Source: Thermoplasmata archaeon (GTDB lineage Archaea; Thermoplasmatota; Thermoplasmata; Halarchaeoplasmatales; Halarchaeoplasmataceae). Taken from it: 64,000 nt of DNA. Of this stretch, positions 3,001 through 53,117 are shown one piece after another (the first letter of the stretch is position 1; each line of letters begins with the position of its first letter). The stretch is from contig JAWOAU010000011.1 in the NCBI GenBank assembly GCA_046498385.1, forward strand, positions 4,315 to 68,314, written 5' to 3'. The notes below the pieces were generated by a model. It saw only the letters and a program-made list of their open reading frames with translations, was not told the DNA's origin and ran no database searches. Position numbers and translations under genes: made by a program.

Positions 3001-5362
3001 TTCCGGGATATTCCGTATATTCCATGATATCTACCATATCATTCCAACCTAATTCACCTTCTGTTCCCGTTGTCCATATCACCAGATTAAAATTCCTCAT
3101 GAAGTCCGGGGTCAAATCAAGGTCGGTAGCATTTCTTAGCATGTAGGCATAAGTCATATCACCATATGCATTTTCAATATTCTCCACGGAATAATCAGTA
3201 TCCGTTGTATCATCGACTATCAGTGTATGGAATCTTACATGGATAAATATGTCCTGATCCGTGTAGGTTATATCGTTGTTCTCCATATTGGCCTCGGGTA
3301 TACGTTGGTATGGATTCACCACTATCTTGAGTTCGTGGGTACCCACGGGTTCCGCCACCCAATCGAACTGTACAGTTATAGCGCTGTTTTTTGGTATTGC
3401 ATACTCCTTGAATTTTATCTCTTCATCGTTCATCACCAAAGCCACTTCGGTGTAGTTTTGGTCCAAATCACCGTTATTACGTACGGTGGCGGTCACTTCA
3501 ACAGTATCTCTGTAATTGGGCATAGGGTTATAGAATTCCTGACTAGTTACCGCAAGATCGGTCATCCTCTCTTCCGATAGTCCACCGAGCCATGTTATAA
3601 CCTTGTTCACAAGGTCCGACCGGTGACCTGTACCTGCCTCCATAATGCTGTCGATTTTTACGGACTGAAAAAAAGTCCTGTATCCCCCGGGCCCCGTGGT
3701 GTTGTACGCAATGGCAACAGTCTCATTGTTTGTGTTGTCCCTGAGTGCAGGTTTTCCTTGATCAACGGGTATGATGTAATGATCTGGCTGATAGTCCATG
3801 TGTACATTGAATGTTTCCGCCTGTAGGAATATTCCTTCATGGATACCATCAAGATCGCCCAGCGGTGCCATAGCGTCGTTTCCCCTATCTGAATGAAGGT
3901 ATGTTTCGAGGAAGTCGTGATTACTGATGTCATCTGCGATATTTTCACCTATCAACCATAATCTATGGTTCTTATCCAAAAATTCTTCCAACTCATCTTT
4001 ATCGTCTTCGATAAGCGTGTCCGTATTCGATCCGGTTACCCAGATGACGAGGTCGTAGGCGGACAGCTGTATTTCACCTACATCGTATGCAGGACCGCTA
4101 CCTCCAGAAGGTATGATAAAAGTGTCATGACTATAGCCTAATCCCATAAGGGTGTTTCTCATGGTCTGAGCGTCCTGGCTCAAGGTGCTGCTGGTTCGGG
4201 ATAAACCCTTGTCTACCAACAGTATGGTCTGTTGCACGTCTAAATGCTTGCTGCCGTATGCTACGTTGTCGTTGTAATGCGCCTCTACAGTTACGTTGTG
4301 CACCCCTGCAGGTCTTATCCTCCAATCAGCCATTACATCTCTTCCACCACCTGCGGGAACGGTTATGGTTTCCGTATGGACTATGCTCCACGTACCACCA
4401 GGGGAGGTGACATTGAATACGATATCGGCCATGGTTTGAGTACCCCCTCGGTTGTAAATGCCCGCACTTGCCGTTACCATCTCTCCACTGATGGGATATG
4501 CGGGGACGAACTCCATCCGCTGTTCGTCCACGCGAAGTTCAGCCTCATCGAGTTTTTCATCGGGCTCTCCTACGTTGAGTTCCAGATATGCAAAATCTCT
4601 GTTGTCACCTTCGTCGCACGCCCTTATATCCAATCTATAGGTGCCGTTTTCCAGGTCATCAGGGATTGTATGGCGCAAGTTGAAGCGGTAGACACGGTTA
4701 TCTAATCGGCTATGGCGGTACATATCTTTAACTTCGCCTCCGATAGGCTCTAGGTCTAGGGTTACATTTAGGTCTTCAAAGGGCGAATTCATGTCCATGA
4801 CCTCTACCCAGAAGGTAACTCTTTCATCAGGATATGCAAAATCATCCCCGACTATGGGATAATCTACGTCCACCGCTCTTATAATGGGAGCTAGTTCTTT
4901 AAATTCATCCCTTAGGTACATTTGGAATATGGTATGTGACCGGTACTGATCCAGCATTACCAGCTCTATCTTTTCCGCTATAGATAGTCTAACCTGTTCA
5001 GCGCCAGAGAATTCTAAGCGTGCGGTGGCGCCTATGGTCCACTCGGAATTTCCTCCGATGCTGGCACGTATATCGTCCTGTGATACACGTATCATATCTC
5101 GCCCTTCGTCGATAAAGAGCATCATCTCAAGGTCCTGTATCTCGATACTCTTTCCGCCCTCGTGTGATATATTCAGATAATAGGTGTCCAGTTCTTCCCA
5201 GGTTATGGATAATCTGCGGTGTTGTTGGGGTACGGGCGGTTCAAAATTTTGAACGCTGGCGAAGATGGCCGTAAAAAGCACTATCGTTATGCTTAGAGTG
5301 AGTATACTGCCCACTACCTCGGAAACACCTTCTTTGTCCAGCTTAAACCCTCTTCTTAACAT
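1..5362 (-). CDS. Giant acidic secreted protein, paralog of the next gene. It has an N-terminal archaeal type IV pilin-like (class III, PF07790-like) signal peptide. The C-terminal end runs off the window start, so the CDS is partial.
   Basis: The ORF track omits it because there is no in-window stop. Manual reverse translation from the ATG (reverse complement of 5360-5362) gives MLRRGFKLDKEGVSEVVGSILTLSITIVLFTAIFASV... and stays open to position 1. An SD-like GAAGGT lies 8 nt upstream. At positions 1-140 the nucleotide and protein sequences resemble the C-terminal end of the 5368..11994 ORF. Internal segments (..DKGLSRTSSTLSQDAQTMRNTLMGLGY.., CARDB-like NYGG blocks) parallel gene 2. Confidence 0.7.
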   Translation of the reverse strand, partial: MLRRGFKLDKEGVSEVVGSILTLSITIVLFTAIFASVQNFEPPVPQQHRRLSITWEELDTYYLNISHEGGKSIEIQDLEMMLFIDEGRDMIRVSQDDIRASIGGNSEWTIGATARLEFSGAEQVRLSIAEKIELVMLDQYRSHTIFQMYLRDEFKELAPIIRAVDVDYPIVGDDFAYPDERVTFWVEVMDMNSPFEDLNVTLDLEPIGGEVKDMYRHSRLDNRVYRFNLRHTIPDDLENGTYRLDIRACDEGDNRDFAYLELNVGEPDEKLDEAELRVDEQRMEFVPAYPISGEMVTASAGIYNRGGTQTMADIVFNVTSPGGTWSIVHTETITVPAGGGRDVMADWRIRPAGVHNVTVEAHYNDNVAYGSKHLDVQQTILLVDKGLSRTSSTLSQDAQTMRNTLMGLGYSHDTFIIPSGGSGPAYDVGEIQLSAYDLVIWVTGSNTDTLIEDDKDELEEFLDKNHRLWLIGENIADDISNHDFLETYLHSDRGNDAMAPLGDLDGIHEGIFLQAETFNVHMDYQPDHYIIPVDQGKPALRDNTNNETVAIAYNTTGPGGYRTFFQSVKIDSIMEAGTGHRSDLVNKVITWLGGLSEERMTDLAVTSQEFYNPMPNYRDTVEVTATVRNNGDLDQNYTEVALVMNDEEIKFKEYAIPKNSAITVQFDWVAEPVGTHELKIVVNPYQRIPEANMENNDITYTDQDIFIHVRFHTLIVDDTTDTDYSVENIENAYGDMTYAYMLRNATDLDLTPDFMRNFNLVIWTTGTEGELGWNDMVDIMEYTEYPGTQNLLLMGDGALQGLSGDPMMDEIFEFFLCIDRSSYAEEQAPQALKGVFDDPLSHGINYRLQPYDDAFAYETVGDGVPILKESDSTYGHRVAGAGYNLVFSSVDISHFRTPINEEYQQWYDLLGFDYSPETMHAEFLYMVNNWFSHYDERIELRVSDVDIDIESDNPNIGRSYFITTRIQNLGGVESEALVRFRDGDNHLGSESAYIPANGFADVELRWTPEFASPERNLRVIVDPLHEIPEVPNPPGERETDDLMGFNNQAIVTTPVYYFWDDMQEGPGKWSHEAQLAYISGESPIDYMGEEYTDLDTNVAGNWSDTEGVEVVSDHSFSDPYSYFMYEPEGDIAQKADVFVAIVIDGSDSMKDHDTPAGIKRLMAAQQGAITLINQLSNESIVLLMGGSGSNPAVHLVEGRAYHKLADHRESLEDELNTENALWWDGGQTPLWDAVGLGYWEVVHTYADIEPELQRAVVVLSDGCDLRASDTAAINNPRPVAFDRAEQNSEEWSPWHNMDSPNYPEEPYSERIGKYQLNDYKEMPGYWGWVYPTGGTRKGLLGASVPIFTIGLGLEHYEDIPNWDAVTTNVRPVAEGNFWNDPNNHVYINPSDPLAIESGTVEYNLWRIANTSKAEYHYSEDGTDLDDIFEQIGASLSGPQNLTSVDIPVLQNDDDSYELMDEPENFDKWAVTPVFDLTNADEAWLTFWHRYRLIQGVNGAYIEIGVPDLDDPENDYLWRYIRPHIGPYTGNLLDSDSVDPHLDDFGQDIHFCWSGNSAGGTMNWEFVKLDLMRELWVLQDEYDISYEALESVRIRFYYKQYGGGVKPGGWWIDDTSVITTRSGDWWNETMDSDDVWWLNNTMDSDGQPTIAWWNSFKEGIDNSLITDPIDLRNAETADLEAEFKFNINSRDGKPPPGFRVEVSDNGGRTWVAINLGVRASWGVSGGDDGGYDGEDIGEDWVYASSLNRLSVDLSDFSGNVINIRFRVVTNTVMDNYEDDEADFQGFYV

Positions 5363-5367: not shown

Positions 5368-8300
5368 TCAACCTTCTTCTATAGAGCTACCGCTCACGAT
5401 AACGTTATCAACGTAGAAACCGGCATCCTCCCCGGGATCATCGTAGTGATTGTAACTACCGGTGGTTGTGATCATCCTGAATCGTATGCGGATAACTTCA
5501 CCTCTGAAGTCAGATAGATCCGTCTCCAACCTAGCTAGAGACTCGGCAGAGGTCCATCCGTGACCTATGTCTGTTCCCTGATATCCATCACCGCCGCCGG
5601 AAACACCCCATGAAGTTCTAACACCCAAGTTGATGGCCTGCCACGTCCGTCCGCCGTCGGTGGTGATCTCCACCCGAAATCCGTCCGGTGGTGCGCCGGA
5701 TTGAATATTGAAATTGAACTTAAAGTACGCGCTAAGTGTTGCATTTCGTGCGTTTGTCAGGTCTATGGAGGTGGTTATCAAGCTGTTGTCTATTCCGCTC
5801 TTCAGGTAATCTCCGTCGGGATCGGTAGGATGAGCGTTGCGCCACGCGGTGGTCGGATTTCCGTCCCAACCGGTGACCTCTTCCGTTCTCCAGACGTCCC
5901 GATGAGAATCAGTCAGATCATTATCGCCTCTGCTCACCACCATCCGTACGTCATCCAGGTACCAACCGTAACCTGTACCACCACCGTACTGGGTGTAGTT
6001 GAACATTATCCTTACATCGTCCTCATAACCCTCGGGAACGTACCGCAGCACGTTTATCTGTACCCTGTCCCAGCCGAAGGCTCCCCCACCGCTGGTACCA
6101 CTCCACGCGAAGTTGATATCATTCCCGAAGCTGTCCGTTCTTGTAACATCCATGTCAAGATTACTGGTGTAGGCCCCTTCCGTTGGTATTGCGTAGGTCC
6201 ATGCGTAACCGTGTTCGTCCACCCAATCTGCATCGAGATCCTCATCGGCCATCACGCCTACCATCACGAAACCACCATTGGTACCGGTAACCATTCTGTA
6301 CTTCGAGCGGAAGACGAGTCCAGCTTGCTGGTAATCCTGGAGGCTGAAGGATGGTGTGATCGCGGTTTTGTTGGTATTTTGCTCTCCAGGTTCACCGGGG
6401 TCGAGGTCATCGGGATCCTCTCCCTCAGCAACAGTGGTGAATGACCATGTTGCGGATTCATTCGTCATTGTTCCATCAAATGCTATTGCATACCATGAGT
6501 ATTCAACTTCATATTCAAGACCGTACCATCTAACCCCCGGGGTTCTAGTTCCACTGGGAACATCAAGATCGAAACCGATCAAATTGTCGTTGGATGCATC
6601 AAAGAATGCCACATCCATTGCTTTATCATCCGGGTGGGACACATATACACTCAGACTCGGTGTTGTGCTAACTGATGTTGCCCCGTCGGTGGGGTTTGGG
6701 TTTGTAGGTGAATCCGGAGGGTTTATTGCGGAATCCGAATGGGTAAACCCTTCTATACGAGAATTGTGATCTTCATCACCCCATGAGAAATATGAATATG
6801 TTCGTGTCCACCAGTATCCGTCCCTCTGTGTATAGTAATAAACAGTCCATTCGTTATCACGTAAGCTAACAGCACCCAGTTGTTCTGTGGTGAATTCGGC
6901 TCTTTGATTCCATGCACCACTTCCAAATCTATCGTAAACCCTCACAACGATGGAATCGGTAGTTGAAATTGAACTGTAAGGAGGTGTCCATGTTGCAGAT
7001 TGAATACCCTCGCCGTTTGAACTGCGTGATACTTGAGCAACAGGAGTTCCCGTTGTTATCTCTTCCGTACCACCCATCTCGTCCCGGGCCCAAACTCTTA
7101 TGCCCCATGTAACTGCAACATTAGAATCGATATCGTCTCCAACCGTATCAAAATCCAACCCGGGGCCGTCGGATTCCAATCTATATGTATCCAAGCCGTT
7201 GACATCCCAGGTCGTTGTTTTCATATATCGTGTTTCCGTAGTCTGTGCCCAACTATTTCTTGAAGTATATTCAGTACCAGTATCGTAGATGGCTATATCG
7301 TTGTCGGGAATAGATGTAACATTACCGGCTTCCGCTGACTCCTGAACAACCTCACTGAATATCTGTTGGAATATGCCTCCGAGTTGATCTGAATCAGGGG
7401 CATAGAAGTAACTCCCGTTGGTTGACTTTGCTATCTGGATTAATTGATATTCGCTCGTGAACGGGTATTCGGATGCAAAGGGAGACATGTAACTGGCATC
7501 TCCTGAAGGCAGATACGCACTGGGTGATGTACCCAATGCAACCGTGTACGTTAACATCGGTGCATTCACAAGAGCCAAACGTTCTGTGGAACGACTACTT
7601 GATCTTCTGTATAGGAGTTCTATCCAATCCACACTACCGTCATCCCAACGTAGTACATCATTATTAGATCCACCTTGATCTCGGTAATCGAATGCATCAT
7701 CACCCCATTCGTGACCGCCATCAACTCCCCAGGTATGATCCAAAGGTCCAACCCCTCGAACGCATCCGGGGGCATAAATATTACTTCCTCTTTCCGGAGG
7801 ATCATCAGCAAAATGTTCATCATCACCGTCGGTGAATAGTATAGTCGCTTGAACATAGTCTTCATCAGGAATACCGGTTGGTCTTGGATTGTCAATCACA
7901 TGGTTCAAGGTATAACCTGATGCATCCCAAAGGGGCGTCCCCCCACTTGCTGTGAAATCGTCTACTCTGGATTTAAAGAAATCCTTGTTGTCGTCCGTCA
8001 TGTATCTGAAATCTTCCCATAGGAAGGAGCCATCATCTTTATGATAACTGTCCAAATTAAACAAAGCTACCCGATCGTTCTCATCGAACATGTCTATCAG
8101 ATCTTTGGTTGCTATTTTTGCATCCTCGATTTTATCCCCGGACATACTTCCCGTGGTATCTACCATAACGCCCATATCTATCGGTAACCTGCCGCCGCTT
8201 ATCTCTCCGCCGACGGACTCCTTGAGATGATACGAGTACGGGTCGCTGAAGGCGTATTCATCGGTATTATTGATACCCTCGGACATATCGTTGTCCCAAT

Positions 8301-11300
8301 CATCGATGATTTCGGTGTAAACCGAGTCGTACTCTCCACTGAGATATTCAAGGGGATGCTCTCCGTTGACGTTCATTATGGTGGCTTCGGTCTCCCAGTT
8401 ATCCGCCCCGCTCTCCATATCATCCCAGAAGTAGTAGACCGGCGTCTCTATGAGGGCGTGGTTGTTGAAGCCCATGGTATTGTCGCCGATCTCGTCCACG
8501 GTACAGCGGGGGTCCACCAGCACACGTACGGGACGTACCGGACCGGCGAACAGCGGTCTCCACATAACTTCCGCAGTCGCACTGCCCCCGGAAGGTATGT
8601 ACATGCTCTCAGAGGCGATGTGGGAGTCTCCGTCCTTGAAGCGGACCAGGGCATCGGAGGGACTGTGTCCTAAGTTCGTTATGGTAGCACTCAAAAGATA
8701 AGAACGGCCGAGCATGGGTTGTTGTTCCTCTACGCTTATGTCCACCGAGGATATCTTGAGTTCAACCCTCTCGTCAACGTTCCCTAGATGATCGGTGACC
8801 ATGTATGTTAACTCGGTTTGCACGGGTAAGGAATCCAAGTCGATGTCCTCCTGGAAATCGTCGTACCAATCATCCAGGTAGACAGGACCTGTAAGACGGG
8901 CAAGGTCCATACCCAGGAAGATCACCTTTGAATCCTCGTAATCGTTTCTCGCACCTATCAGGGCATCCTTCTCATCGTTGTGGTAAGTGTATGCGAATCC
9001 GTGGCCACCGTTCAATACAAAAGTAGTGTGGGATCCATCCTCACCGTCAACACTGTATTCCATACCATGACCCAGTTCGTCGTCTATCTCTCCTCTTATC
9101 TCGTGAGGTGCATTGGTAACATTTCCAATATCACCTAAATTTCCGCTTATACCCATCACATCGTCTATGAACCCTGAATCAACTTCCCTAATATGTTCAA
9201 GCACGTTATCGCCGCTCAAAAAGAAGCTAGTCCCTTCTTTTTTGTCAAGGAATTCCTTTATACTCTCGAGCACGTCTCCAGATATAGCCTCTTTTACTTC
9301 CCCTGCATCCCAGTACACTGTATTGTAGCGTTTCAGAGTTTCGTTTATGTCTATGGGATCCCCGTTTTCATCTTCTATGCTTTCATCTTGGTAAGTGTAA
9401 ATATTATGTGCGTACCCCAGTTCTTCCAAAGTGCTCTGGAGCGGCGTATCCTCTCCTTCGACCCGGGCATTCACCAGCATCACCGAGAAGCGCACGTTCA
9501 CCGTGTAGTCAACGTCGGTGTAGCGTATATCGTTGTTCTCCTGAGTTGTCTCTTCTACACGGTTGTAGGGATCAACGACTACCAGTATCTCATGCACGCC
9601 AACCGGTTCGGCCGTCCAGTAAAAGGTAACGTCCTTTGTCTCGCCCTCAGTTATGTTAACGTACTTTCTGTAGTCCTCTCCCCTGAGATAATTACCGTTA
9701 ACCTTGAGCCGTACTTCCACGTTCGTCATATTTTCCACACCGTTGTTGAGTATGGTCCCGGTTACGTTTACTTCTTGCTGATACATGGGATGTATCGGTC
9801 CGTAGACCCCGTCGAATTTCTGGTCGATCAGGGCAAGGTCGTTGCCGTGACGTTGGCTGATGTTTCCAAGCCATTCGAGTACCCTGCCGGCCATCAGTAA
9901 CCTGCTCCCGGGCTCCACGGACCTGAACATATAGGAGTTGAACATGGTCCTGTTTCTTCCGCCTTCCCAGCTAACACCCAGTCCACCTCCTCCGTCACCA
10001 TCTGTCATTGCAAGTGTCCCTTCATCTATTGCATCGATATATCCCCCTTTCCAGGTTCCGGTTGCGGGATAATGCTGTCCCTCGGTGAAAGGCGTGTCTA
10101 TACCGTATATCAGACTTTTAAAGGGTGCATCTGCATTTGCAATATCTATCTCTGCGTGCAGGTTATCTTGGAGCCAACCATCCCAACCATTTTCTTGAGC
10201 ATCGTTCAGGATACCTTCGCCTACGAGCCACAGGAATCCACCTTCTTCGATGAACTTCGCAAGATTCTCCCGGTCAGCTTCAGTGAGGGTTCTGCGCATC
10301 TCTATATTATCTCCTCCTAGGTCCCTCCTGGTCCTACCGGTCATCCATATGACTAGATCCTGTTCTTTCAGCGGAAACTCACCTTCATCCCAAAGGGGAG
10401 GTGAGTTTGTATATCTATAATCCTGATCTAGGCCGTCCAATGCCCCTTTCATCGCCCTTCCGTCGCTGCCATAGGTCTCTTGAGTATCGTCTACCAGTAG
10501 TATGATGGGACTTACGAACAATTCACTCCTGTCGATGTTCAAATCCGGACTGGCATCGCTACCGCCGGTTGAAAAGATGTCGTGCAGTTCGACGGTTATC
10601 TCATGTTCACCGCTGCCGTTCACCTGCCAGGTAACCTGTAAGTCCCTGCCACCTCCAGCGGCCACGTGGAGATGCTCTATGAAGCCTATATTTTCACCGT
10701 AGTCCAACTCATCATACACTTCGTGAGGCAGTCTATCGTAAAACGAAATGTTCATCCTGGCGGAGCTCCCGCCGTAGTTCTCTATGGTGGCCCGGACGGT
10801 AACGCTGTCTCTGTTCGTTGGATTCACAGGAATGAACTCCTGTATATTGACACGCAAGTCGGGCTCTTCACCTACGACTCCGGCCCGGCCCACGTTTAGC
10901 GTAATGTACTCAGACCGTGACCAGGCTACGCTATTGTTCATGGTCCCGTTAACCGCCAGCTCTCGAGATATATCTTCGTTTCCCGTATGTATGTATATCC
11001 GCAGCAAATACGTACCGTTATCCTGTTCTCTAGGCACCGTGAGGGACCCTGAATGGGGGTAAACGAACCGGTTACCTTGTCTGCTCATGTTGTACAGATT
11101 GGAACCCCATGCACCACCATCCTGGAATCCTTCTATACGTCCAAGGTCGACCATCACGTTATCTTTTATATCGTTCAAATCTCCGCCATCCCACTCTATA
11201 TTAGCGTAAAGAGAAACATCTTCTCCTGCATCGACGGCTACATGCCATGGTTGGGGGTACACCACGCCGGCTTCTTTAACATAGGGACGTTCGCCGAGGA

Positions 11301-11823
11301 TACCGCTGATGAATACTTCGCCATCCCACACGATGCCACCGTGGGTTATTATCAATACGGTCAGGCGGTCGACGGAGTTCTCCATCTCACTCCAGTCTTC
11401 ATAACTTAGCTTATCAGGTAGTTCGGTCACGTTTAACATAAGATTCCCTCCGATATCCCAGTATTGTTCATCCCTCCCGGTGATCTCGATTATCTCTTCG
11501 TCGTCGAACATGAAGCGGTGACTGCGAACCCTCTCGTCATAGGACACAATATGAAGACTGGATTCACGAATATTTATGGGATGTCCTCCTTTATGTTCGA
11601 TGGTTATGGTTCTGATCATCTCTTCATCCACCACCTCCCAACTAAAATTAGCTTCCATGGTCAGATAAGCGGTCCTTTCCGGCGATTCCAATCTTGTGAC
11701 AGCGGCAAAGATAGTGGAAAAGAGCACTACCGTTATAGATAAAACAAGGATGGTGCCTACCACTTCCGACACAGCACTTCCGTCTTTACTCAGTCTGCGT
11801 TTGCAAAAATCATTTCGTTTCAA
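5368..11823 (-). CDS. Giant (about 2,150 aa; ORF track gives 5368..11994, 2208 aa) acidic secreted protein. It has an archaeal type IV pilin-like N-terminal signal peptide, CARDB-like and FN3-like beta domains, and a vWA (MIDAS) domain. It is a putative pilus-associated adhesin.
   Basis: The 6.6-kb ORF is uninterrupted. The pilin_N-like motif KRRLSKDGSAVSEVVGTILVLSITVVLFSTIFAAV lies about 60 aa after the track's first Met. A likely true start is TTG at 11821-11823 (reverse complement), preceded by GGGGGT 7 nt upstream. The upstream 170 nt of the track ORF overlaps the divergent gene at 11963. The vWA motifs DTTGSMSG...ASGGTPLWDA...ILFTDGDD map to about 7800-8170. There are many N-x-S/T sequons. 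Confidence 0.75.
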   Translation of the reverse strand: MKRNDFCKRRLSKDGSAVSEVVGTILVLSITVVLFSTIFAAVTRLESPERTAYLTMEANFSWEVVDEEMIRTITIEHKGGHPINIRESSLHIVSYDERVRSHRFMFDDEEIIEITGRDEQYWDIGGNLMLNVTELPDKLSYEDWSEMENSVDRLTVLIITHGGIVWDGEVFISGILGERPYVKEAGVVYPQPWHVAVDAGEDVSLYANIEWDGGDLNDIKDNVMVDLGRIEGFQDGGAWGSNLYNMSRQGNRFVYPHSGSLTVPREQDNGTYLLRIYIHTGNEDISRELAVNGTMNNSVAWSRSEYITLNVGRAGVVGEEPDLRVNIQEFIPVNPTNRDSVTVRATIENYGGSSARMNISFYDRLPHEVYDELDYGENIGFIEHLHVAAGGGRDLQVTWQVNGSGEHEITVELHDIFSTGGSDASPDLNIDRSELFVSPIILLVDDTQETYGSDGRAMKGALDGLDQDYRYTNSPPLWDEGEFPLKEQDLVIWMTGRTRRDLGGDNIEMRRTLTEADRENLAKFIEEGGFLWLVGEGILNDAQENGWDGWLQDNLHAEIDIANADAPFKSLIYGIDTPFTEGQHYPATGTWKGGYIDAIDEGTLAMTDGDGGGGLGVSWEGGRNRTMFNSYMFRSVEPGSRLLMAGRVLEWLGNISQRHGNDLALIDQKFDGVYGPIHPMYQQEVNVTGTILNNGVENMTNVEVRLKVNGNYLRGEDYRKYVNITEGETKDVTFYWTAEPVGVHEILVVVDPYNRVEETTQENNDIRYTDVDYTVNVRFSVMLVNARVEGEDTPLQSTLEELGYAHNIYTYQDESIEDENGDPIDINETLKRYNTVYWDAGEVKEAISGDVLESIKEFLDKKEGTSFFLSGDNVLEHIREVDSGFIDDVMGISGNLGDIGNVTNAPHEIRGEIDDELGHGMEYSVDGEDGSHTTFVLNGGHGFAYTYHNDEKDALIGARNDYEDSKVIFLGMDLARLTGPVYLDDWYDDFQEDIDLDSLPVQTELTYMVTDHLGNVDERVELKISSVDISVEEQQPMLGRSYLLSATITNLGHSPSDALVRFKDGDSHIASESMYIPSGGSATAEVMWRPLFAGPVRPVRVLVDPRCTVDEIGDNTMGFNNHALIETPVYYFWDDMESGADNWETEATIMNVNGEHPLEYLSGEYDSVYTEIIDDWDNDMSEGINNTDEYAFSDPYSYHLKESVGGEISGGRLPIDMGVMVDTTGSMSGDKIEDAKIATKDLIDMFDENDRVALFNLDSYHKDDGSFLWEDFRYMTDDNKDFFKSRVDDFTASGGTPLWDASGYTLNHVIDNPRPTGIPDEDYVQATILFTDGDDEHFADDPPERGSNIYAPGCVRGVGPLDHTWGVDGGHEWGDDAFDYRDQGGSNNDVLRWDDGSVDWIELLYRRSSSRSTERLALVNAPMLTYTVALGTSPSAYLPSGDASYMSPFASEYPFTSEYQLIQIAKSTNGSYFYAPDSDQLGGIFQQIFSEVVQESAEAGNVTSIPDNDIAIYDTGTEYTSRNSWAQTTETRYMKTTTWDVNGLDTYRLESDGPGLDFDTVGDDIDSNVAVTWGIRVWARDEMGGTEEITTGTPVAQVSRSSNGEGIQSATWTPPYSSISTTDSIVVRVYDRFGSGAWNQRAEFTTEQLGAVSLRDNEWTVYYYTQRDGYWWTRTYSYFSWGDEDHNSRIEGFTHSDSAINPPDSPTNPNPTDGATSVSTTPSLSVYVSHPDDKAMDVAFFDASNDNLIGFDLDVPSGTRTPGVRWYGLEYEVEYSWYAIAFDGTMTNESATWSFTTVAEGEDPDDLDPGEPGEQNTNKTAITPSFSLQDYQQAGLVFRSKYRMVTGTNGGFVMVGVMADEDLDADWVDEHGYAWTYAIPTEGAYTSNLDMDVTRTDSFGNDINFAWSGTSGGGAFGWDRVQINVLRYVPEGYEDDVRIMFNYTQYGGGTGYGWYLDDVRMVVSRGDNDLTDSHRDVWRTEEVTGWDGNPTTAWRNAHPTDPDGDYLKSGIDNSLITTSIDLTNARNATLSAYFKFNFNIQSGAPPDGFRVEITTDGGRTWQAINLGVRTSWGVSGGGDGYQGTDIGHGWTSAESLARLETDLSDFRGEVIRIRFRMITTTGSYNHYDDPGEDAGFYVDNVIVSGSSIEEG

Positions 11824-11962
11824 TTTTGATACCCCCAAGGTAACACTACAGCAAGTCTTTCTAGAATATATAAACGTTGTGTGGTAATCACCATTTTCAG
11901 ATGGTAATCGCACTCGACAACATTTATATCGTGTACCGCACCTAAACCCTCTTTGAAATAAC

Positions 11963-12937
11963 ATGAAAATAGGGGTCGTAGGTGTCGGGTCCATGGGTCA
12001 GAATCACGCCCGTGTCCTTGACCAGATAGGGTATCTTGCAGGTGTTATGGATTCTAAAAAAACCGCAGCCAAAGCCGCGGGTGAAAAACACAACGTACCG
12101 TGGTTCACCGATCTAAAGGGATTCCTGGAAACCGGTATGGACGGGGTAACGGTGGCTACACCTGCACGGACCCATGTGGACGTATGCGAAGAGATGATCA
12201 AAGAGGGGATACCGGTACTGGTGGAAAAGCCCATAGCGCTATCGCTCCCAAAGGCTGAAAGTCTGGTGAAACTGGCAGAGGAACAAAACGTTGTTCTGGC
12301 GGCGGGGATGATAGAAAGACACAACCCGGTGGTATCCTCCGCAAAAAAACTTCTCCAGGACGGAAACGTAGGTGACGTGATAACCATCAGCTCCAAGCGG
12401 GTGAGCTCCTTTCCCACTCGTGTAGCGGATATGGGTGTGATCCATGATCTCGCCATCCACGACGTGGACGTCATGCGCTACCTCATAGGAGAAGAACCGG
12501 AAAAGGTATTCGCCTTGGGCGGTCCCGCCAATCAAGGTAAATACGAGGACCACGCCAACATGATGCTGCACTTTCCAGGAGACATAACAGGCGTTTTGGA
12601 GGTCAACTGGCTCACACCTCATAAGGTGAGAAAACTCTCACTCACCTGTTCCAACGATTTCATCGAGATAGACTACATCGCCCAGTCCCTTGTGCTCACC
12701 TCTTCCAGGCTCATGGAATACGATACCAGCAATCTGTTCGACATACCTCTTGAGCACAACATACGCAAGTACACAGTTAAGCGTCAGGAACCGCTCATGA
12801 AGGAGATGGAGGATTTCGTCGGTGCCGTTAAAAAGAAGCACCCGCCCCTAGTTACCGGTAAGGACGGCTTGTTGAGCATGAAAGTGGTGGATGCCGCCAG
12901 ACGCTCCATGGTAGAGGGGAAGGAGGTCTACGTTTGA
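11963..12937 (+). CDS. Gfo/Idh/MocA-family NAD-dependent oxidoreductase (UDP-GlcNAc(A) 3-dehydrogenase, WbpB-like)
   Basis: The N-terminal Rossmann motif MKIGVVGVGSMGQNHARVL and the 324-aa length fit the family. The 4-nt ATGA overlap with the downstream acetyltransferase is typical of wbpB-wbpD-like sugar-modification pairs. Confidence 0.75.
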   Translation: MKIGVVGVGSMGQNHARVLDQIGYLAGVMDSKKTAAKAAGEKHNVPWFTDLKGFLETGMDGVTVATPARTHVDVCEEMIKEGIPVLVEKPIALSLPKAESLVKLAEEQNVVLAAGMIERHNPVVSSAKKLLQDGNVGDVITISSKRVSSFPTRVADMGVIHDLAIHDVDVMRYLIGEEPEKVFALGGPANQGKYEDHANMMLHFPGDITGVLEVNWLTPHKVRKLSLTCSNDFIEIDYIAQSLVLTSSRLMEYDTSNLFDIPLEHNIRKYTVKRQEPLMKEMEDFVGAVKKKHPPLVTGKDGLLSMKVVDAARRSMVEGKEVYV

Positions 12938-13515
12938 AAAAGATGGGGCCTATAATAAAGGGGGAAAACGTATACATCTCAGAGACCGCCATCCTGGGTC
13001 ATCCCGGTAAAAAAAACAAGGACCTTTTGATAACCGGAAGGTTCAACGGACTCCGACCGGTTAAAATAAAAGACGACGTACTGTTGAGAGATCACACCGT
13101 TGTCTACGAAGGCGTAAGCTTGGGAACAGGGGTGGAAACCGGCCACCGTGTACTGATAAGGGAGGATACCGATATAGGTGAACACACCGTCGTCGGCAGC
13201 GGTACTATAATCGAAGCGGGCTGCGAAATAGGAAAAAAAGTGTCCATCCAAAGCTCCGTATATCTAGCCAACGGGACAAAAGTATTGGACGATGCATTCC
13301 TTGGACCTATGGTCTGCTTGATCAACGATAAATACATGGACGGTAGAATCCAACCGTGTACCATCGGCGAAGACGCAAGGATCGGGGCGGGCTCCACCAT
13401 ATTTCCCGGTGTATCGGTAGGTAAAGGGGCGGTGGTAGGTGCCGACTCTCTGGTAACAAAGGACATACCTAACAACAAAAAAGCCTTTGGCAGACCTGCA
13501 AAGCTCCGGGGTTAG
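12934..13515 (+). CDS. Hexapeptide-repeat (left-handed beta-helix) acetyltransferase, WbpD-like UDP-amino-sugar N-acetyltransferase
   Basis: The sequence shows repeated [LIV]-G-x-x-x-x hexapeptides (IGEHTVVGSGTIIEAGCEIGKKVSIQ...), is 193 aa long, and is translationally coupled to the oxidoreductase. Confidence 0.7.
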   Translation: MKKMGPIIKGENVYISETAILGHPGKKNKDLLITGRFNGLRPVKIKDDVLLRDHTVVYEGVSLGTGVETGHRVLIREDTDIGEHTVVGSGTIIEAGCEIGKKVSIQSSVYLANGTKVLDDAFLGPMVCLINDKYMDGRIQPCTIGEDARIGAGSTIFPGVSVGKGAVVGADSLVTKDIPNNKKAFGRPAKLRG

Positions 13516-13558
13516 AAAGGTTTATTTTTGCCACCTGCGTTATCGCCTTTGAGATAAA

Positions 13559-14044
13559 ATGACAGATGCACAGAAACTGCTGGAAGAAGGCGAACGGTTG
13601 CTAAATGAATTCGACTTCGAGGGCGCGTATAAAAAATTTGACAAGGCTCTAAAAACAGAAGAGAGTGCCGCCGCTTACTTTGGAAAAGCGGAGGCAGCCC
13701 TCGGCATGCCGGAAGTGGATGCGGAGAATATAATCCAGGACTACGAAAAGGCGATAGAGATACAGGACGACCCGTTTTATCGTCAGGCGGCTGCCTCTTT
13801 TTGTGTAGACGTGGGAAAGTTCGAAAAGGCTGAAAAGCACTATCGAAAGGCGGCGGAACTCGACCCAGATAACCGGGAGAACTACCTATCCGAGTTTGCG
13901 GTGGGGTATCGGTTCAAAGCGCCTATCATGATGCAGAAGTATCTAGCCCAGGGCGGAGAAGACGTGATACTTCGTAAGGCCTTGAACTATATGCTCGAGG
14001 CCATGGATATAGACCGGGGCAAGGCTCTGGAACTTCTTAAGTGA
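13559..14044 (+). CDS. TPR-repeat protein
   Basis: The 161-aa protein has about 34-aa degenerate helical repeats (AYKKFDKALK..., AAAYFGKAEAALG, EKHYRKAAELDPDN). Confidence 0.55.
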   Translation: MTDAQKLLEEGERLLNEFDFEGAYKKFDKALKTEESAAAYFGKAEAALGMPEVDAENIIQDYEKAIEIQDDPFYRQAAASFCVDVGKFEKAEKHYRKAAELDPDNRENYLSEFAVGYRFKAPIMMQKYLAQGGEDVILRKALNYMLEAMDIDRGKALELLK

Positions 14045-14072
14045 GCAAGCACAAAATATTTAAGAGTGCGCC

Positions 14073-14393
14073 TTGAATAGCTGTTTTAACATGTTCTGCG
14101 AAAAATGCAAATCACTGATGATACCGTCGAAGGGCCTTTGGCAATGTAAAAGATGTTCTCACGAGAAAAAGGTCAACAAGAACGACAAGCAGGTTATCAC
14201 TACCAAAAGAGAAGAACGTGAAACGGTCGTCATAGATCAGGAGGTAGATACTCTCCCCAAGACCAAGGCCCGCTGTGAAAAATGCGATAACAATGAAGCT
14301 TTCTGGCGTCTTCAGCAGACCCGGGCTGCGGACGAACCCGAAACGCGCATATACAGGTGTACCAAGTGTGGTCACACGTGGAGGGAGTATTGA
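14073..14393 (+). CDS. tfs: Transcription factor S (TFS) / RNA polymerase subunit M, a TFIIS-type zinc ribbon protein
   Basis: There is an N-terminal zinc ribbon (CEKCKSLM...CKRC) and a C-terminal TFIIS-type ribbon ending QTRAADEPETRIYRCTKCGHTWREY, with the acidic DE loop. The length is 106 aa. Confidence 0.85.
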   Translation: MNSCFNMFCEKCKSLMIPSKGLWQCKRCSHEKKVNKNDKQVITTKREERETVVIDQEVDTLPKTKARCEKCDNNEAFWRLQQTRAADEPETRIYRCTKCGHTWREY

Positions 14394-14394
14394 A

Positions 14395-15015
14395 TTGTTC
14401 GAGATCGGTAGGATAAGATTCAGACCCTTGGAAAAGGAAGATATATGCTTGATGGACCGCTGGGAGGACCACCATGTGGTCACCCTGTTCGCCAGAGGTA
14501 AAACCCTTGTGTTCAAGGCCAGAGAGGAGATCAAGAGGGAATACGAAGAGTATCTGGAAAACCGATCAAAAACAAGACTTATCGTCGAGCTTGTGGAAGA
14601 TTCTAAGGAAATAGGCATAGCGACTTACAAGGACAGGAACGGTGATGTGAGGTCCACCGATATAGGGTGCTATATAGGTGAACCCAGTTACTGGAACCAG
14701 GGACTAGGTAAGGAGATCGCCCTTGGGTTTTGCGAGATGCTCTTTTATCAACAGAAATACGATAGGTTGAGTGCCTGGAGCAGTTCGGTTAACACCAGGG
14801 CACACAGCGTTTTAGAGTCTGTCGGCTTCCAGCTCTCTGGAAGAGCCAGGAAAAGCGGCTACATGATGGGGAAAAAGATAGATTGGCTCATGTTCGATAT
14901 CCTGCGAGAAGAGTACATACCAAAAAGAAAAGAATACCTCAACAAGTACCTTACGGAAGCCCAGTTGGAGACATATTCTGAAGATTATTGTTCCCTAAAA
15001 TCTTACAAGCCTTGA
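14395..15015 (+). CDS. GNAT-family N-acetyltransferase (RimL/RimJ-like)
   Basis: The motifs IRFRPLEKEDICLMDRWEDHHV and the acetyl-CoA-binding-like block NQGLGKEIALGFCEMLF fit the family. The ORF track starts at 14275 inside tfs. The likely real start is TTG at 14395 just after the tfs stop, or alternatively ATG at 14452. Confidence 0.65.
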   Translation: MFEIGRIRFRPLEKEDICLMDRWEDHHVVTLFARGKTLVFKAREEIKREYEEYLENRSKTRLIVELVEDSKEIGIATYKDRNGDVRSTDIGCYIGEPSYWNQGLGKEIALGFCEMLFYQQKYDRLSAWSSSVNTRAHSVLESVGFQLSGRARKSGYMMGKKIDWLMFDILREEYIPKRKEYLNKYLTEAQLETYSEDYCSLKSYKP

Positions 15016-15052
15016 AAAAATTTATTTATCTAAGGTCATATACCGCTAACAG

Positions 15053-16189
15053 ATGGGAACTAAAGAGCTCACGTACAAGGAGAAGGTCCTTCTATATCTT
15101 AGGGATTACAAGTCTTTGGGTGAAAAGAAGGTTTATCCTAGGGGGATCACTCAAAAAGGTATAGCTGAAGCCGTGGGCATGCGCAGGACCCATGTTTCCA
15201 GGGTGATGAGGGACCTTATAGAAAACAAAGAAGTAGAAGAATATCTAGGACACGTTAAGGGCCGTTCCAGAAAACTAAAGGTTTACACCCTAAGACCGGA
15301 GGGTGTGGCGAGGGGTGACGAGATAATAAAAGAACTTGAAAGTGTGTATGTACAGGTTTCCAAAGAAGGGAGAACCTTCAAGTCCAAACTCACCGAACTT
15401 GAAGAACTTTCTGGAAAAAGACTGAGCCTTCTGGAATCCATCGAGCTGGTTGAAACCTCCGATCAACCTATAGACCTGGATGAATCCGGTTCAAAACGGT
15501 TTGTGACTGAACTTTCCAAGGCACCTGTTGTAGAAGAACTATACGGTAGAAATGAAGTTTTAACGATGATGGACGAATGGATGAAAAAAGATATCCCGGT
15601 TGCGGTTTTGGAGGGGCGAAGAGGTTCCGGCGCATCGTGTACCGCCCGCCGTTTTCTTGATTCGGTGGATGACAGACACCTGCTTTGGGTCGATGTGCAG
15701 GATGATGATGTGATAAAGAAGATAGATGATTTTTTTTTCACCGTCCATGATGATAAAAAAAAATTGTTTCAGGCATTAAAGGAAACTCCTGCATTGATCG
15801 TGATCGATGATTATTACAACGTAGAGGACGAACTTGTGGACTTTTTTGTGGAGATGGTTGATCGATTGGATAAAGAATACCAAACTAAAATACTGGTGAC
15901 TACCAGGGAAGGTCTACCGGTCTACGAACGGTTTTATCACCGAGAACATTTGAAGGAGGGAAAAGTGGACCAAATAAGCATACCCCCACTTAACGAAGAA
16001 GAGGCGGAGTTGATACTGGGCAAAGAGTTGGAATCCAGCGCCCTCCGACGTATAATGTTGATGACCAAGGGTTCGCCCCAGATACTCAAACACCTCCGGG
16101 ACGGCCGTATCGATAAGATAGAGGGGGAAAGTGCATTGGTCAGGGAGCAGGTTTCACTGCTTATGTTTCTAAAGGAACAGACCCGCTGA
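15053..16189 (+). CDS. Winged-HTH plus P-loop-like (degenerate Walker A) domain protein, a putative regulator
   Basis: The N-terminal wHTH is GITQKGIAEAVGMRRTHVSRVMRDLIE. A central degenerate Walker A is VAVLEGRRGSGAS (no Lys) and a Walker-B-like segment is ALIVIDDYY. It resembles archaeal ATPase-domain regulators. Confidence 0.45.
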   Translation: MGTKELTYKEKVLLYLRDYKSLGEKKVYPRGITQKGIAEAVGMRRTHVSRVMRDLIENKEVEEYLGHVKGRSRKLKVYTLRPEGVARGDEIIKELESVYVQVSKEGRTFKSKLTELEELSGKRLSLLESIELVETSDQPIDLDESGSKRFVTELSKAPVVEELYGRNEVLTMMDEWMKKDIPVAVLEGRRGSGASCTARRFLDSVDDRHLLWVDVQDDDVIKKIDDFFFTVHDDKKKLFQALKETPALIVIDDYYNVEDELVDFFVEMVDRLDKEYQTKILVTTREGLPVYERFYHREHLKEGKVDQISIPPLNEEEAELILGKELESSALRRIMLMTKGSPQILKHLRDGRIDKIEGESALVREQVSLLMFLKEQTR

Positions 16190-48549: not shown

Positions 48550-48550
48550 T

Positions 48551-48991
48551 ATGGGGGATGAAAATAAAATAGGAAATTGGGACCCGGTCATCGTCGGTTT
48601 CTGCTGTAACTGGTGCAGTTACGCCGGTGCAGATCTCGCAGGAACATCTAGAGAGCAGTACCCACCGAATATCAGGGTTATCAAGGTCATGTGCTCGGGC
48701 AGGATAAGTCCGGAATTTATTTTGAAGACGTTCCAGGAAGGGGCAGACGGCGTGCTGGTTTCTGGCTGCCATCCGGGAGATTGCCACTACATAGAAGGGA
48801 ATTACTACACTCGAAGAAGGCTGACCATCCTTTGGGATTTCCTAGATTACATGGGTATAGAACCAGAAAGACTTAAGCTATCATGGATATCGGCAGCCGA
48901 GGGCAAAAAATTCGCAAACGTTGTTGAGGAGTTCACTGACAAGGTGAGAGAACTAGGACCGCAGAAAAAACTACGGAAAGGGGTAGAATGA
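48551..48991 (+). CDS. mvhD: MvhD/FlxD-like delta subunit ([2Fe-2S] electron-transfer partner of HdrA)
   Basis: The motifs [19 protein letters not shown] ... KVMCSGRI...[10 protein letters not shown] match MvhD. The protein is 146 aa. Confidence 0.85.
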
Positions 48992-49872
48992 CCAGAGATT
49001 ACGAAAAGATAGAAGAAGAGATAAAAGAACAGGCGAAGGAGTGGCTGGAAAACGACGACGTGAATTACCTTATAGGATATGAAAAGGGGTCCGACCCACT
49101 CATCGCGAGACCAGTCTTCATCAGAACTCCAGAAGATGCAGACAGGTTAGTATGGAATCAGGGATGCGTCAACAACCTCACGAGATTTTTGGTCGAGAAC
49201 ATAAGGAAAGAGAAGGACACCACAATCGGTATAGTCGTGAAACCGTGCGACTCCAAAGCGATCGTCGAACTGATCAAGGAGAACGTTCTACCAAGAGAAA
49301 GAATGAAGATAATAGGCGTTACATGTGAAGGCATGATAGATAAGGACAAGGAAGAGGACGATACCTTGGCAGATAAGTGTCAGGTCTGTACAACTCATAA
49401 TCCAGTTATAGCCGATGTTGTCTTTGGCCCCGAAGTCGAGGAAGATTTTACAGATGAATATCAAGATATACAGGACATCGAAGAGATGGATGTTGAGGAG
49501 AGATGGGAGTACTGGGAAGATCAACTTTCCAAGTGCATACGCTGCTATGCGTGCAGAGACGTATGCCCAATGTGCTATTGTGAGGAATGTGTTTTCGAGC
49601 GTGAGAAACCACATCGATGGCTGGACAAGAGCGTTACGAAAGAAGATAATTTTTTCTACCACATGATAAGAGCGTTGCACCTTGCGGGTCGATGTATAGA
49701 CTGCGGTGAGTGCGAGAGGGTCTGTCCCATGGACATCCCTATAAGAAAGATGAACAGGATATTGGAGAAATGTGTGAAAAAGAGATTCGATTTGAAACCA
49801 GGTATGGATGTGGATGATAAAAGTCTGTTCGGTTCTTATGATAAAGATGATCCAGAGGAGGTCATTGTATAG
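48988..49872 (+). CDS. Iron-sulfur cluster-binding protein (FlxC/FrhB-like) with two 4Fe-4S ferredoxin motifs
   Basis: The motifs [16 protein letters not shown] and [12 protein letters not shown] are present. The protein is 294 aa and overlaps mvhD by ATGA. Confidence 0.6.
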
Positions 49873-49873
49873 G

Positions 49874-51854: not shown

Positions 51855-51867
51855 GGGTTGAATTAAC

Positions 51868-52254
51868 ATGAAAGTGAAAAGAGATAAGGAATTTCTTGAT
51901 AAAGTAGAAGAACTGTCAGGACAGTCAGTCACTTCTTGTATCCGATGCGGGACTTGTTCTGCTGGATGTCCTTTTGTGGAGGAAATGGACGAACTACCAG
52001 AGAGAGTATTCGAAAGGATAATCCTCGGTGACAAAGAAGGGGTGTTGGAGAGGAACACCATGTGGATATGTGCAGCGTGCTTCCAGTGCAGCGTGAGATG
52101 CCCGAGGGATATCGATATCGCCAAGATCATGGAAGCAGTAAGACAGATCACGTTAAGAAAAAACATCGATAAAGTAGATTTAGATCATGTGGAAAATATG
52201 GCTGAACTACCGCAGCTCGCTGTAGTTGGCTGCTTCAGGAAGGAGACTGGATAA
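51868..52254 (+). CDS. hdrC: Heterodisulfide reductase subunit C-like (2x4Fe-4S)
   Basis: The motifs CIRCGTCSAGCP and CAACFQCSVRCP are present. The protein is 128 aa and lies immediately upstream of hdrB. Confidence 0.8.
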   Translation: MKVKRDKEFLDKVEELSGQSVTSCIRCGTCSAGCPFVEEMDELPERVFERIILGDKEGVLERNTMWICAACFQCSVRCPRDIDIAKIMEAVRQITLRKNIDKVDLDHVENMAELPQLAVVGCFRKETG

Positions 52255-52255
52255 C

Positions 52256-53110: not shown

Positions 53111-53117
53111 GATTGGT

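Follow-up and report, generated by a model that had tools for sequence, protein, structure and literature searches.

A predicted two-gene unit for 2,3-diacetamido-sugar biosynthesis beside giant pilin-like genes in the Thermoplasmatota

Background

In a 64-kb stretch of DNA from the metagenome-assembled genome of an uncultured archaeon of the Thermoplasmata (the whole stretch is called the window here), two plus-strand genes lie back to back with genes for giant pilin-like surface proteins. The question raised by this locus is whether the two halves form one system. The original prediction read the pair as WbpB/WbpD-like enzymes for a glucuronic acid-type diacetamido sugar, made locally for the glycosylation of the giant proteins next door. 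By analogy of role, the precedent for such an idea would be MMP0350 of Methanococcus maripaludis, an acetyltransferase proposed to act in making the diacetylated second sugar in the N-glycan of archaellins and pilins; its loss abolishes archaella and leaves pili detached (PMC2952790). MMP0350 differs from the proposed arrangement in that it belongs to the general N-glycan synthesis of M. maripaludis and not to a module tied to one target. We therefore consider separately what the two enzymes are likely to do and what ties them to their neighbours.

Results and discussion

The oxidoreductase

The first gene of the pair (OXR; 11963..12937, plus strand) encodes a 324-residue Gfo/Idh/MocA oxidoreductase, as judged from Pfam, NCBIfam and PDB matches; its NCBI record carries just the name 'Gfo/Idh/MocA family oxidoreductase'. 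Both the N-terminal Rossmann NAD-binding domain and the C-terminal alpha/beta domain are present according to Pfam (PF01408, 83.1 bits against a cut-off of 24; PF22725, 67.4 against 27; PF02894, 60.1 against 22.9). The top NCBIfam model is NF040723, archaeal UDP-GlcNAc 3-dehydrogenase, at 290.6 bits, with a match spanning OXR residues 1-315 and model positions 1-300 of 302. Second comes iolG (TIGR04380) at 138.5 bits, some 150 bits lower; an identity as myo-inositol 2-dehydrogenase (IolG) was dropped, since that score is neither the best nor at the model's equivalog cut-off of 355 bits. OXR nevertheless stays below the curated equivalog cut-off of NF040723, which is 450 bits, so that its substrate is predicted rather than assured. 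Against NF040723, type A, B and C orthologues reach 293-324 bits, likewise below 450, and the fact that all of the Thermoplasmatota proteins tested behave in this way makes them a sister branch of NF040723 and not certified equivalogs.

The best solved structure for OXR is 7bvj, matched over nearly the full length with 107 bits from the single sequence (phmmer) and 159.8 bits from a profile. We take 7bvj and 7bvk, which their depositors named 'Oxidoreductase, NAD-binding', to be GnnA of Acidithiobacillus ferrooxidans. Two entries annotated as inositol dehydrogenase (4hkt and 3ezy) rank next. WlbA (3q2k) lies far below 7bvj, with 39 bits by phmmer and 90.6 by profile, and WbpB/WlbA was accordingly dropped as the closest kin. 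Residues E88-K89-P90 (EKP) and D162/H166 (Asp-x3-His) of OXR do not vary among 13 orthologues and line up with their counterparts in 7bvj; the EKP lysine and the Asp-x3-His motif have a catalytic role in the Gfo/Idh/MocA family. OXR is thus best described as a predicted UDP-GlcNAc 3-dehydrogenase of the MMP0352/GnnA kind. MMP0352 of M. maripaludis, a UDP-GlcNAc dehydrogenase (bioRxiv 10.1101/2023.03.18.533286), has the same fold, and the family model of its type is the full-length best match of OXR; OXR differs from it in scoring below 450 bits, in having no adjacent aminotransferase gene and in having a function that is predicted. GnnA, whose oxidation of UDP-GlcNAc yields the 3-oxo sugar (PMC11446377), is bacterial and serves the GlcN3N of lipid A, where the amine is acylated and not acetylated by a QdtC-like enzyme.

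The acyltransferase

The second gene (AcT; 12943..13515, plus strand) encodes a left-handed beta-helix (hexapeptide) acyltransferase, recognised from its Hexapep repeats, PDB matches and orthologues. NCBI names the 190-residue protein 'acyltransferase'. The repeats reach 75.5 bits, over the Pfam cut-off, and together with the domains of OXR they bear out the oxidoreductase and hexapeptide transferase calls of the original prediction. The best PDB match is QdtC (3fs8; E 2.3e-24, 89.5 bits, residues 8-187), which makes up the top four with the FdtD-like 4mzu and two N-acetyltransferases of the 7s3u type; perosamine N-acetyltransferase 4eab is fifth and WlbB (3mqg, 48.6 bits) sixth. QdtC, 4mzu and 7s3u all act on nucleotide sugars, acetylating the nitrogen of a 3-amino group. 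AcT shares with QdtC of Thermoanaerobacterium thermosaccharolyticum extra N-terminal turns and the Asn-Asp pair within ...L(T/I)ND...: the segment ...CLINDKY... of AcT aligns with ...VLTNDPT... of QdtC, whose N159/D160 we take to be the Asn-Asp pair at the sugar-amine site. AcT is predicted to be a QdtC-like enzyme that N-acetylates a nucleotide sugar at its 3-amino group. QdtC is longer (273 residues) and acts on a dTDP-3-amino-3,6-dideoxy sugar, whereas the operon partner of AcT suggests a UDP-GlcNAc-derived substrate; with a dTDP-sugar enzyme as nearest relative, the nucleotide carrier is not certain.

Other identities scored poorly. Maltose and galactoside O-acetyltransferase models gave 40.7 bits (NF007499, cut-off 314) and 47.5 bits (NF007076, cut-off 347), O-acetyltransferase models as a whole gave 40-57 bits against cut-offs of 243-347, and maltose O-acetyltransferases in the PDB gave at most 39 bits. 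A maltose/galactoside O-acetyltransferase was rejected on these model and PDB scores; DapD, LpxA/LpxD and GlmU were also considered and dropped on score.

The transcription unit

The two genes had been described as translationally coupled through an ATGA overlap. The junction (12935..12945, plus strand) reads gttTGAaaaagATGggg: the TGA stop of OXR (12935-12937) is followed by a 5-nt spacer and then by the ATG of AcT at 12943, so that there is no such overlap. This start agrees with the NCBI protein and with an MGP N-terminus conserved in relatives, and the sole candidate start overlapping the OXR stop is an in-frame TTG at 12934 that is not conserved. The arrangement TGA-N5-ATGGG(A/G)CC recurs in four related loci (L006, L001, L008 and L010), and OXR and AcT are 4-24 nt apart in most relatives. 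The short gap supports co-transcription, if not the overlap. Directly 3' of the AcT stop, a T-tract (TTTATTTTT; 13521..13529, plus strand) is a possible archaeal terminator that would end the two-gene unit. The output of a scan for sigma-70 promoters and hairpin terminators was disregarded because such signals do not apply to archaea.

The giant genes and the divergent intergenic region

The divergent adjacency of the pair to giant pilin-like genes is as originally described. Two tandem minus-strand genes lie upstream: giant1 (5368..11823) encodes a surface protein of 2151 residues, and its paralogue giant2 (2..5362) runs past the start of the window and encodes more than 1787 residues. Both have the Pilin_N/CARDB/VWA/MAM architecture in Pfam, including the archaeal type IV pilin N-terminal domain (PF07790), and they are 27% identical over about 1600 residues. 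The Pilin_N model was used here because a pattern search for class III signal peptides proved too strict and missed giant1. The TTG start of giant1 at 11823 is kept in two close relatives (loci L006 and L007). Sequons are many, as had been noted, in absolute number (22 in giant1, 15 in giant2), but they are not significantly enriched over composition-preserving shuffles (z=1.6 and z=1.0), so that their number largely follows from length and Asn content.

Between giant1 and OXR lie 139 bp (11824..11962), which we aligned among the window, L006 and L007. TATA-like boxes, inferred from sequence to be promoters, are found on the OXR side (TTTATAT, 11924-11930) and on the minus strand for giant1 (TTTATATA, at about 11866-11873). 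The two boxes flank a conserved 35-bp block (11875-11909), found once in the window, which holds two TGGTAATC repeats at 11882 and 11902, 20 nt apart. An identical run of 28 nt, including the first repeat, is common to these three giant-bearing genomes, where the divergent units could be co-regulated. The block is absent from L001, a fourth giant-bearing locus. The TATA-like box near OXR recurs in almost every clade member examined, among giant-bearing genomes and among those that lack giants.

Orthologous loci and the history of the clade

Elsewhere in the Thermoplasmatota, OXR orthologues that are 46-51% identical occur in OXR-AcT-DegT or AcT-DegT-OXR/WecC/WecB operons. The former order, with an AcT of the window type, was found at 12 species loci, and the acyltransferase between OXR and DegT in these loci is 41-49% identical to AcT over 165-190 residues. 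At about 14 other loci a WlbB-like AcT, DegT and OXR are accompanied by a gene in convergent orientation that resembles archaeal UDP-ManNAc dehydrogenases, and in many cases by wecB. The acetyltransferase of this second operon type is a different paralogue from AcT, and scores 132 bits to WlbB. The operons with DegT and a hexapeptide acetyltransferase resemble the MMP0350-0353 cluster, in which we take MMP0352 to be accompanied by just such a DegT aminotransferase and hexapeptide acetyltransferase. The family scores and these orthologous operons uphold the central claim of the original prediction, that the pair is a dehydrogenase/N-acetyltransferase couple for a 2,3-diacetamido sugar. Scattering of the pathway genes is also frequent across the phylum: several loci have their AcT and DegT 3-8 kb away from OXR or lack them within 10 kb.

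The window belongs to a set of 17 genomes that share an OXR-AcT-TPR-TFS-GNAT block. In the window, AcT is followed on the plus strand by genes assigned by Pfam and NCBIfam to a TPR protein (13559-14044), transcription factor S (TFS, 14073-14393), a GNAT acetyltransferase (ending at 15015) and an HTH/STAND-like protein (15053-16189). This downstream block (13559..16189) accompanies the pair in most of the clade genomes whose sequence extends far enough past AcT, L003 retaining only the TPR gene, and it stands where DegT stands in more distant relatives.

On the other side of the pair the clade is not uniform. Giant Pilin_N genes lie upstream in just 4 of the 17 genomes, namely the closest ones (OXR at least 76% identical), and one of these, L001, has a UbiA-family gene between the giants and the pair. 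In all 13 clade genomes without giants, the gene upstream of OXR is a small one with PF01877. A neighbour-joining tree, computed without support values and with an outgroup sequence that was incomplete and had been taken from a printed alignment, places the 17 genomes in one group and the giant-bearing genomes in one subclade. As all four cases fall within this shallow subclade, the adjacency represents a single event; with the PF01877 gene exchanged for the giants in one ancestor, it is of recent origin, a rearrangement rather than a conserved functional module.

The original prediction was right that no WbpE-like aminotransferase is present in the window. Across the 64 kb, neither Pfam searches of every ORF with 100 or more residues nor tblastn (E<=1) detected a DegT-type aminotransferase, WecB or WecC, and tblastn detected no nucleotide-sugar 6-dehydrogenase. 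Among the ORFs of at least 100 residues, Pfam found no oligosaccharyltransferase (AglB), glycosyltransferase or flippase; the sole match to the MOP superfamily in the window, a partial MatE transporter, lies some 50 kb distant. Nor does any of the 17 genomes of the clade have an aminotransferase gene within 10 kb of the pair, so the pathway is incomplete at this locus. A search with the type-B DegT returned 7990 matches, none assignable to assemblies of the window clade.

A proposed pathway and its alternatives

The two proteins most likely catalyse the first and the last step of the 2,3-diacetamido-sugar route known from archaea. Family membership and orthologue context suggest that OXR would use NAD+ to oxidise C-3 of UDP-GlcNAc, giving a 3-keto sugar, which a PLP-dependent aminotransferase of the DegT family, encoded elsewhere, would convert to UDP-GlcNAc3N. 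Judging from its homology to QdtC, FdtD and WlbB, AcT would then transfer an acetyl group from acetyl-CoA to the 3-amino group. The product, UDP-2,3-diacetamido-2,3-dideoxyglucose, may later be epimerised or oxidised by other enzymes and would presumably feed the general surface glycoconjugate or N-glycan synthesis of the cell. The pair would be part of a conserved block of housekeeping type, a PF01877 gene followed by OXR-AcT-TPR-TFS-GNAT, in which an ancestor common to the window organism and the three genomes nearest to it probably exchanged the upstream gene for two giant pilin-like genes. We put the probability of this reading as a whole, a two-gene unit of nucleotide-sugar biosynthesis that the giants came to adjoin by one recent rearrangement, at about 75%.

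Two alternatives concern the chemistry. It is highly improbable that the pair follows the WbpB/WbpD pathway to the letter, acting on UDP-GlcNAcA after oxidation at C-6, with NADH recycled by 2-oxoglutarate and a glucuronic or mannuronic product. The enzymes of that pathway in Pseudomonas and Bordetella (WbpB/WlbA and WbpD/WlbB, for UDP-ManNAc3NAcA) catalyse the same two steps on homologous folds, 3-oxidation and, following transamination, 3-N-acetylation. The overall chemistry is therefore the same, WlbA (3q2k, 3q2i) and WlbB (3mqg) are detectable homologues, and some orthologues in the phylum adjoin the UDP-ManNAc-dehydrogenase-like gene. Those enzymes, however, act on the uronic acid form and are further from the pair than GnnA and QdtC: WlbA falls well behind 7bvj for OXR, whose best family model is a UDP-GlcNAc-specific archaeal one, AcT is QdtC-like and not WlbB-like, and the truly WlbB-like enzyme sits in the other operon type. 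The label WbpB/WbpD-like thus holds for the 3-dehydrogenase/3-N-acetyltransferase chemistry and misplaces the nearest characterised relatives, MMP0352/GnnA and QdtC, while the glucuronic acid-type sugar is unsupported here, the window having no nucleotide-sugar 6-dehydrogenase by tblastn and no uronic-acid-forming dehydrogenase near the pair. A diverged function, in which OXR and AcT would serve another substrate, for example by 3-dehydrogenation of a sugar or cyclitol and then O-acetylation, and might yield no 3-acetamido sugar, is quite unlikely. The absence of DegT from the locus in 17 of 17 clade genomes, with a TPR gene in its place, would fit it, as would the sub-threshold NF040723 score, the inositol-dehydrogenase-annotated runners-up among PDB matches and the many O-acetyltransferases among hexapeptide transferases. 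Against it stand the wide lead of the UDP-GlcNAc 3-dehydrogenase model over iolG, an OXR score within the range of orthologues that are operonic with DegT, the full-length orthology of AcT to the acyltransferase encoded between OXR and DegT elsewhere and the poor O-acetyltransferase scores. The tight coupling of OXR and AcT, kept throughout the clade, is also what would be expected if both still serve one pathway.

The remaining alternative concerns the neighbours, and is the one that the original prediction favoured: a dedicated system, co-regulated from a shared promoter region, in which the pair makes its sugar specifically for the giants. We regard this as unlikely. It draws on the direct divergent adjacency seen in the window, L006 and L007, where some 139 bp lie between the two units, on the 28 identical nucleotides with the first TGGTAATC between the TATA-like boxes, on the secreted-type character and the sequons of the giants and on the truncated N-glycan and disturbed archaella and pili that follow loss of MMP0350 in M. 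maripaludis (PMC2952790). Other large secreted proteins are also encoded near 3 of the 12 OXR-AcT-DegT loci (a beta-helix protein at L031, a C25 peptidase with CARDB at L045 and a subtilase with PKD at L055), but these are unrelated proteins and their frequency is not clearly above chance, so a recurrent pattern was rejected. A typical locus of this kind, L064, sits amid purine biosynthesis, MarC, MFS and GTPase genes; such housekeeping surroundings make genomic context uninformative about the glycan acceptor. The linked system is further disfavoured by an adjacency confined to one shallow subclade and produced by one rearrangement, by the intervening UbiA-family gene and missing block in L001, by a TATA-like box that OXR keeps even where the giants are absent, by sequons that are not in excess and by the lack of any linked AglB, glycosyltransferase, flippase or aminotransferase gene in the window. 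Giant1 is a divergent neighbour with at most a putative functional tie to the pair. A general N-glycosylation pathway that uses the diacetamido sugar could still place it on the giants, as on other secreted proteins. A narrower proposal, that one regulator bound at 11875-11909 governs both the giant operon and OXR-AcT in the window organism and those nearest to it, giving a lineage-specific 'glycosylated giant pilin' module, seems to us decidedly doubtful; if true, the supply of diacetamido sugar would be turned on alongside the giant fibre proteins.

Conclusions

The locus reveals no new system, and a single rearrangement is all that underlies the tie between the pair and the giant pilin-like proteins. 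Two genes that had been named in general terms gain a specific predicted function in nucleotide-sugar biosynthesis. In the Thermoplasmatota the archaeal 2,3-diacetamido-sugar pathway is found in no fewer than three gene arrangements, across which two acetyltransferase paralogues occur, one QdtC-like and the other WlbB-like. To our knowledge, no surface glycan is known from these uncultured lineages; the pathway therefore predicts a component, a 2,3-diacetamido sugar, that may be sought in them.

Predicted identity of the two enzymes

Two plus-strand genes from an uncultured Thermoplasmata archaeon encode an oxidoreductase with N- and C-terminal Gfo/Idh/MocA domains (OXR, 11963-12937) and an acyltransferase with hexapeptide repeats (AcT, ATG at 12943, end at 13515). 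The 324-aa OXR product matches, at 100% identity, a MAG protein at NCBI that is encoded on a contig of 70,063 bp and named merely 'Gfo/Idh/MocA family oxidoreductase'. The AcT start agrees with the 190-aa NCBI 'acyltransferase' and with a Met-Gly-Pro N-terminus conserved among relatives. Since the OXR stop occupies 12935-12937, the two genes are separated by 5 nt (junction gttTGAaaaagATGggg) and do not share the ATGA overlap that had been claimed for them.

The top NCBIfam model for OXR is NF040723, the archaeal UDP-GlcNAc 3-dehydrogenase equivalog, which matches over the full length at 290.6 bits; this score lies below the curated cut-off of 450 bits, as do those of three more distant orthologues (293-324 bits). 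Assignment as an inositol dehydrogenase was rejected, the inositol 2-dehydrogenase model reaching 138.5 bits. Among solved structures, the best match is 7bvj, which we take to be GnnA: the single OXR sequence scores 107 bits against it and a profile of 13 sequences 159.8 bits, where WlbA (3q2k) reaches 39 and 90.6 bits, respectively. EKP and Asp-x3-His motifs are invariant among the OXR orthologues. GnnA oxidizes UDP-GlcNAc to UDP-3-oxo-GlcNAc (PMC11446377), and MMP0352 is a UDP-GlcNAc dehydrogenase (bioRxiv 10.1101/2023.03.18.533286).

AcT finds its best structural matches in QdtC (2.3e-24), an FdtD-like protein, two 7s3u-type N-acetyltransferases and WlbB, enzymes that all acetylate the 3-amino group of a nucleotide sugar; O-acetyltransferases score far below these enzymes, and this alternative was set aside. 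By model and structure scores, therefore, the pair does not fall with inositol dehydrogenases or maltose acetyltransferases. The original prediction of a diacetamido-sugar enzyme pair is supported and also refined, in that MMP0352/GnnA and QdtC, rather than WbpB and WbpD, come out as the nearest relatives.

Gene arrangements in Thermoplasmatota

Eighty Thermoplasmatota loci, drawn from one scan of GTDB species genomes, were screened in tblastn searches that took as queries the window proteins and the pathway proteins of another locus (L005). Outside the window's own clade, three arrangements were found in this set. Type A runs from a WlbB-like acetyltransferase through a DegT-family aminotransferase to OXR and is accompanied by a UDP-ManNAc-dehydrogenase-like gene in convergent orientation, frequently also by wecB; type B (12 loci) runs from OXR through a window-type AcT (41-49% identity) to DegT; type C has only OXR and the convergent dehydrogenase, the acetyltransferase and DegT lying several kilobases off or more than 10 kb away. 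Both types of acetyltransferase, and the OXR family with them, are linked by these contexts to a 3-amino-sugar pathway. A representative OXR-AcT-DegT locus (L064) is surrounded by housekeeping genes.

The window belongs to a group of 17 genomes (OXR identity 59-80%) that forms one clade in a neighbour-joining tree built without support values, and in which the gene order is OXR-AcT-TPR-TFS-GNAT-HTH/STAND (TFS, transcription factor S). Neither DegT nor the 2-epimerase WecB nor the UDP-ManNAc-type dehydrogenase WecC occurs within 10 kb of OXR in this clade, and none was detected in the window by tblastn at E<=1, which bears out the earlier remark that the window holds no aminotransferase. A 161-aa TPR protein (13559-14044) invariably follows AcT in the clade, in the place taken by DegT in distant relatives, and is better conserved than AcT (62-86% versus 49-63% identity). 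The longest GNAT ORF (GTG at 14275) starts inside the TFS gene and shares 14275-14393 with its 3' end; this is probably an ORF-calling artefact, as the GNAT calls of relatives (200-227 aa) suggest a later start.

Relation to the giant pilin-like genes

Upstream of OXR, on the minus strand, lie giant1 (5368-11823, 2151 aa) and giant2 (<2-5362, >1787 aa), tandem paralogues with 27% identity and a 5-nt spacer. Both carry Pilin_N (the archaeal type IV pilin N-terminal domain), CARDB, VWA and MAM domains, a composition that suggests adhesins anchored or processed as type IV pilins are. The most likely giant1 start is the TTG at 11823, kept in the relatives L006 and L007, which gives a divergent spacer of 139 bp to OXR.

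The pair and the giants had been proposed to constitute a linked glycosylation system, a reading that the comparison does not sustain. Pilin_N giants lie 5' of OXR in only four of the 17 clade genomes, namely the window and its closest relatives (L006, L007 and L001, all with giant orthologues; OXR identity at least 76%), and in L001 a UbiA-family gene (8310-9860, 516 aa), co-directional with the giants, separates them from OXR. All 13 genomes without giants instead have a small co-directional PF01877 gene 5' of OXR, directly adjacent in 12 and 2.9 kb upstream in L017. The adjacency is thus the outcome of one rearrangement. The giants do contain many sequons, as had been observed (22 in giant1 and 15 in giant2), but these counts are merely 1.6 and 1.0 SD above composition-preserving shuffles, and no AglB or glycosyltransferase was found among window ORFs of at least 100 aa.

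The one feature favouring co-regulation of the giants and OXR lies in the spacer. The window, L006 and L007 share an identical stretch of 28 nt (ATATATAAACGTTGTGTGGTAATCACCA, about 11866-11893), although their proteins show only 77-80% identity. It overlaps a conserved block (CGTTGTGTGGTAATCACCAttttcaGATGGTAATC, 11875-11909) between the divergent TATA-like boxes, in which TGGTAATC occurs twice, 20 nt from first to second. The block occurs once in the window and is missing in L001 and in genomes without giants. It is a candidate transcription-factor site that may be the operator of the giant-gene promoter and could in principle also act on OXR. Of the clade members examined, nearly all show a TATA-like box about 33-38 nt 5' of the OXR start, whether or not they carry giants, so that OXR-AcT seems to be served by a promoter of its own.

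Several further genes of these regions were recorded. The window lacks a counterpart of the L001 UbiA-family prenyltransferase, which is unusually long for its family, the UbiA domain covering residues 271-499 only. Three type-B loci of distant Thermoplasmatota lie near other large secreted proteins: a beta-helix/NosD protein (L031, 1098-6311), a C25 peptidase with CARDB (L045, 3174-7178) and a subtilase that carries PKD together with a HINT/intein-like insert (L055, 7475-12709). These are unrelated to the giants, and their frequency is not clearly above chance; they are possibly coincidental. In the window, sequons are densest for the region, at 1.87 per 100 aa (11 in all, z=1.9), in a secreted-type protein of 588 aa that contains GLUG motifs (16354-18120, minus strand). 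At 58262-61961 (minus strand), a 573-aa ATPase of the T2SSE family and a 661-aa membrane protein resembling T2SSF make up an assembly pair of the type IV pilus or archaellum kind, which could serve as assembly machinery for the Pilin_N giants, about 46 kb away. A heterodisulfide-reductase/Mvh-like cluster of electron-bifurcation components (45550-55492) encodes an HdrA-like flavoprotein of 999 aa, an FlpD/MvhD-like protein, several 4Fe-4S proteins, one CCG-domain protein and one FAD_binding_2 protein; 2-oxoacid:ferredoxin oxidoreductase subunits follow on its 3' side, with a second set at 21.5-24.1 kb. A transporter gene of the MatE family (MOP superfamily; 63063-63998, plus strand) is cut off by the window end and shows only weak similarity to Polysacc_synt and MurJ.

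Proposed pathway

The original observation was largely correct apart from the ATGA overlap; its enzymatic reading is supported in refined form, and the linked system is not supported. In the best-supported mechanism, OXR would oxidize UDP-GlcNAc at C-3, an unlinked DegT-type aminotransferase would yield UDP-GlcNAc3N, and AcT would acetylate the new amine to give UDP-GlcNAc3NAc. Family membership and the operon context of orthologues are observed; the substrates, the existence of an unlinked aminotransferase and the later use of the product are inferred. GlcNAc3NAcA occurs in the N-glycans of M. voltae. M. maripaludis without MMP0350 has a truncated glycan and disturbed archaella and pili (PMC2952790). 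It is thus plausible in general that pilin-like proteins are glycosylated with a sugar of this kind, with nothing specific to the giants. The UDP-GlcNAc3NAc made by this route would enter general surface glycan synthesis.
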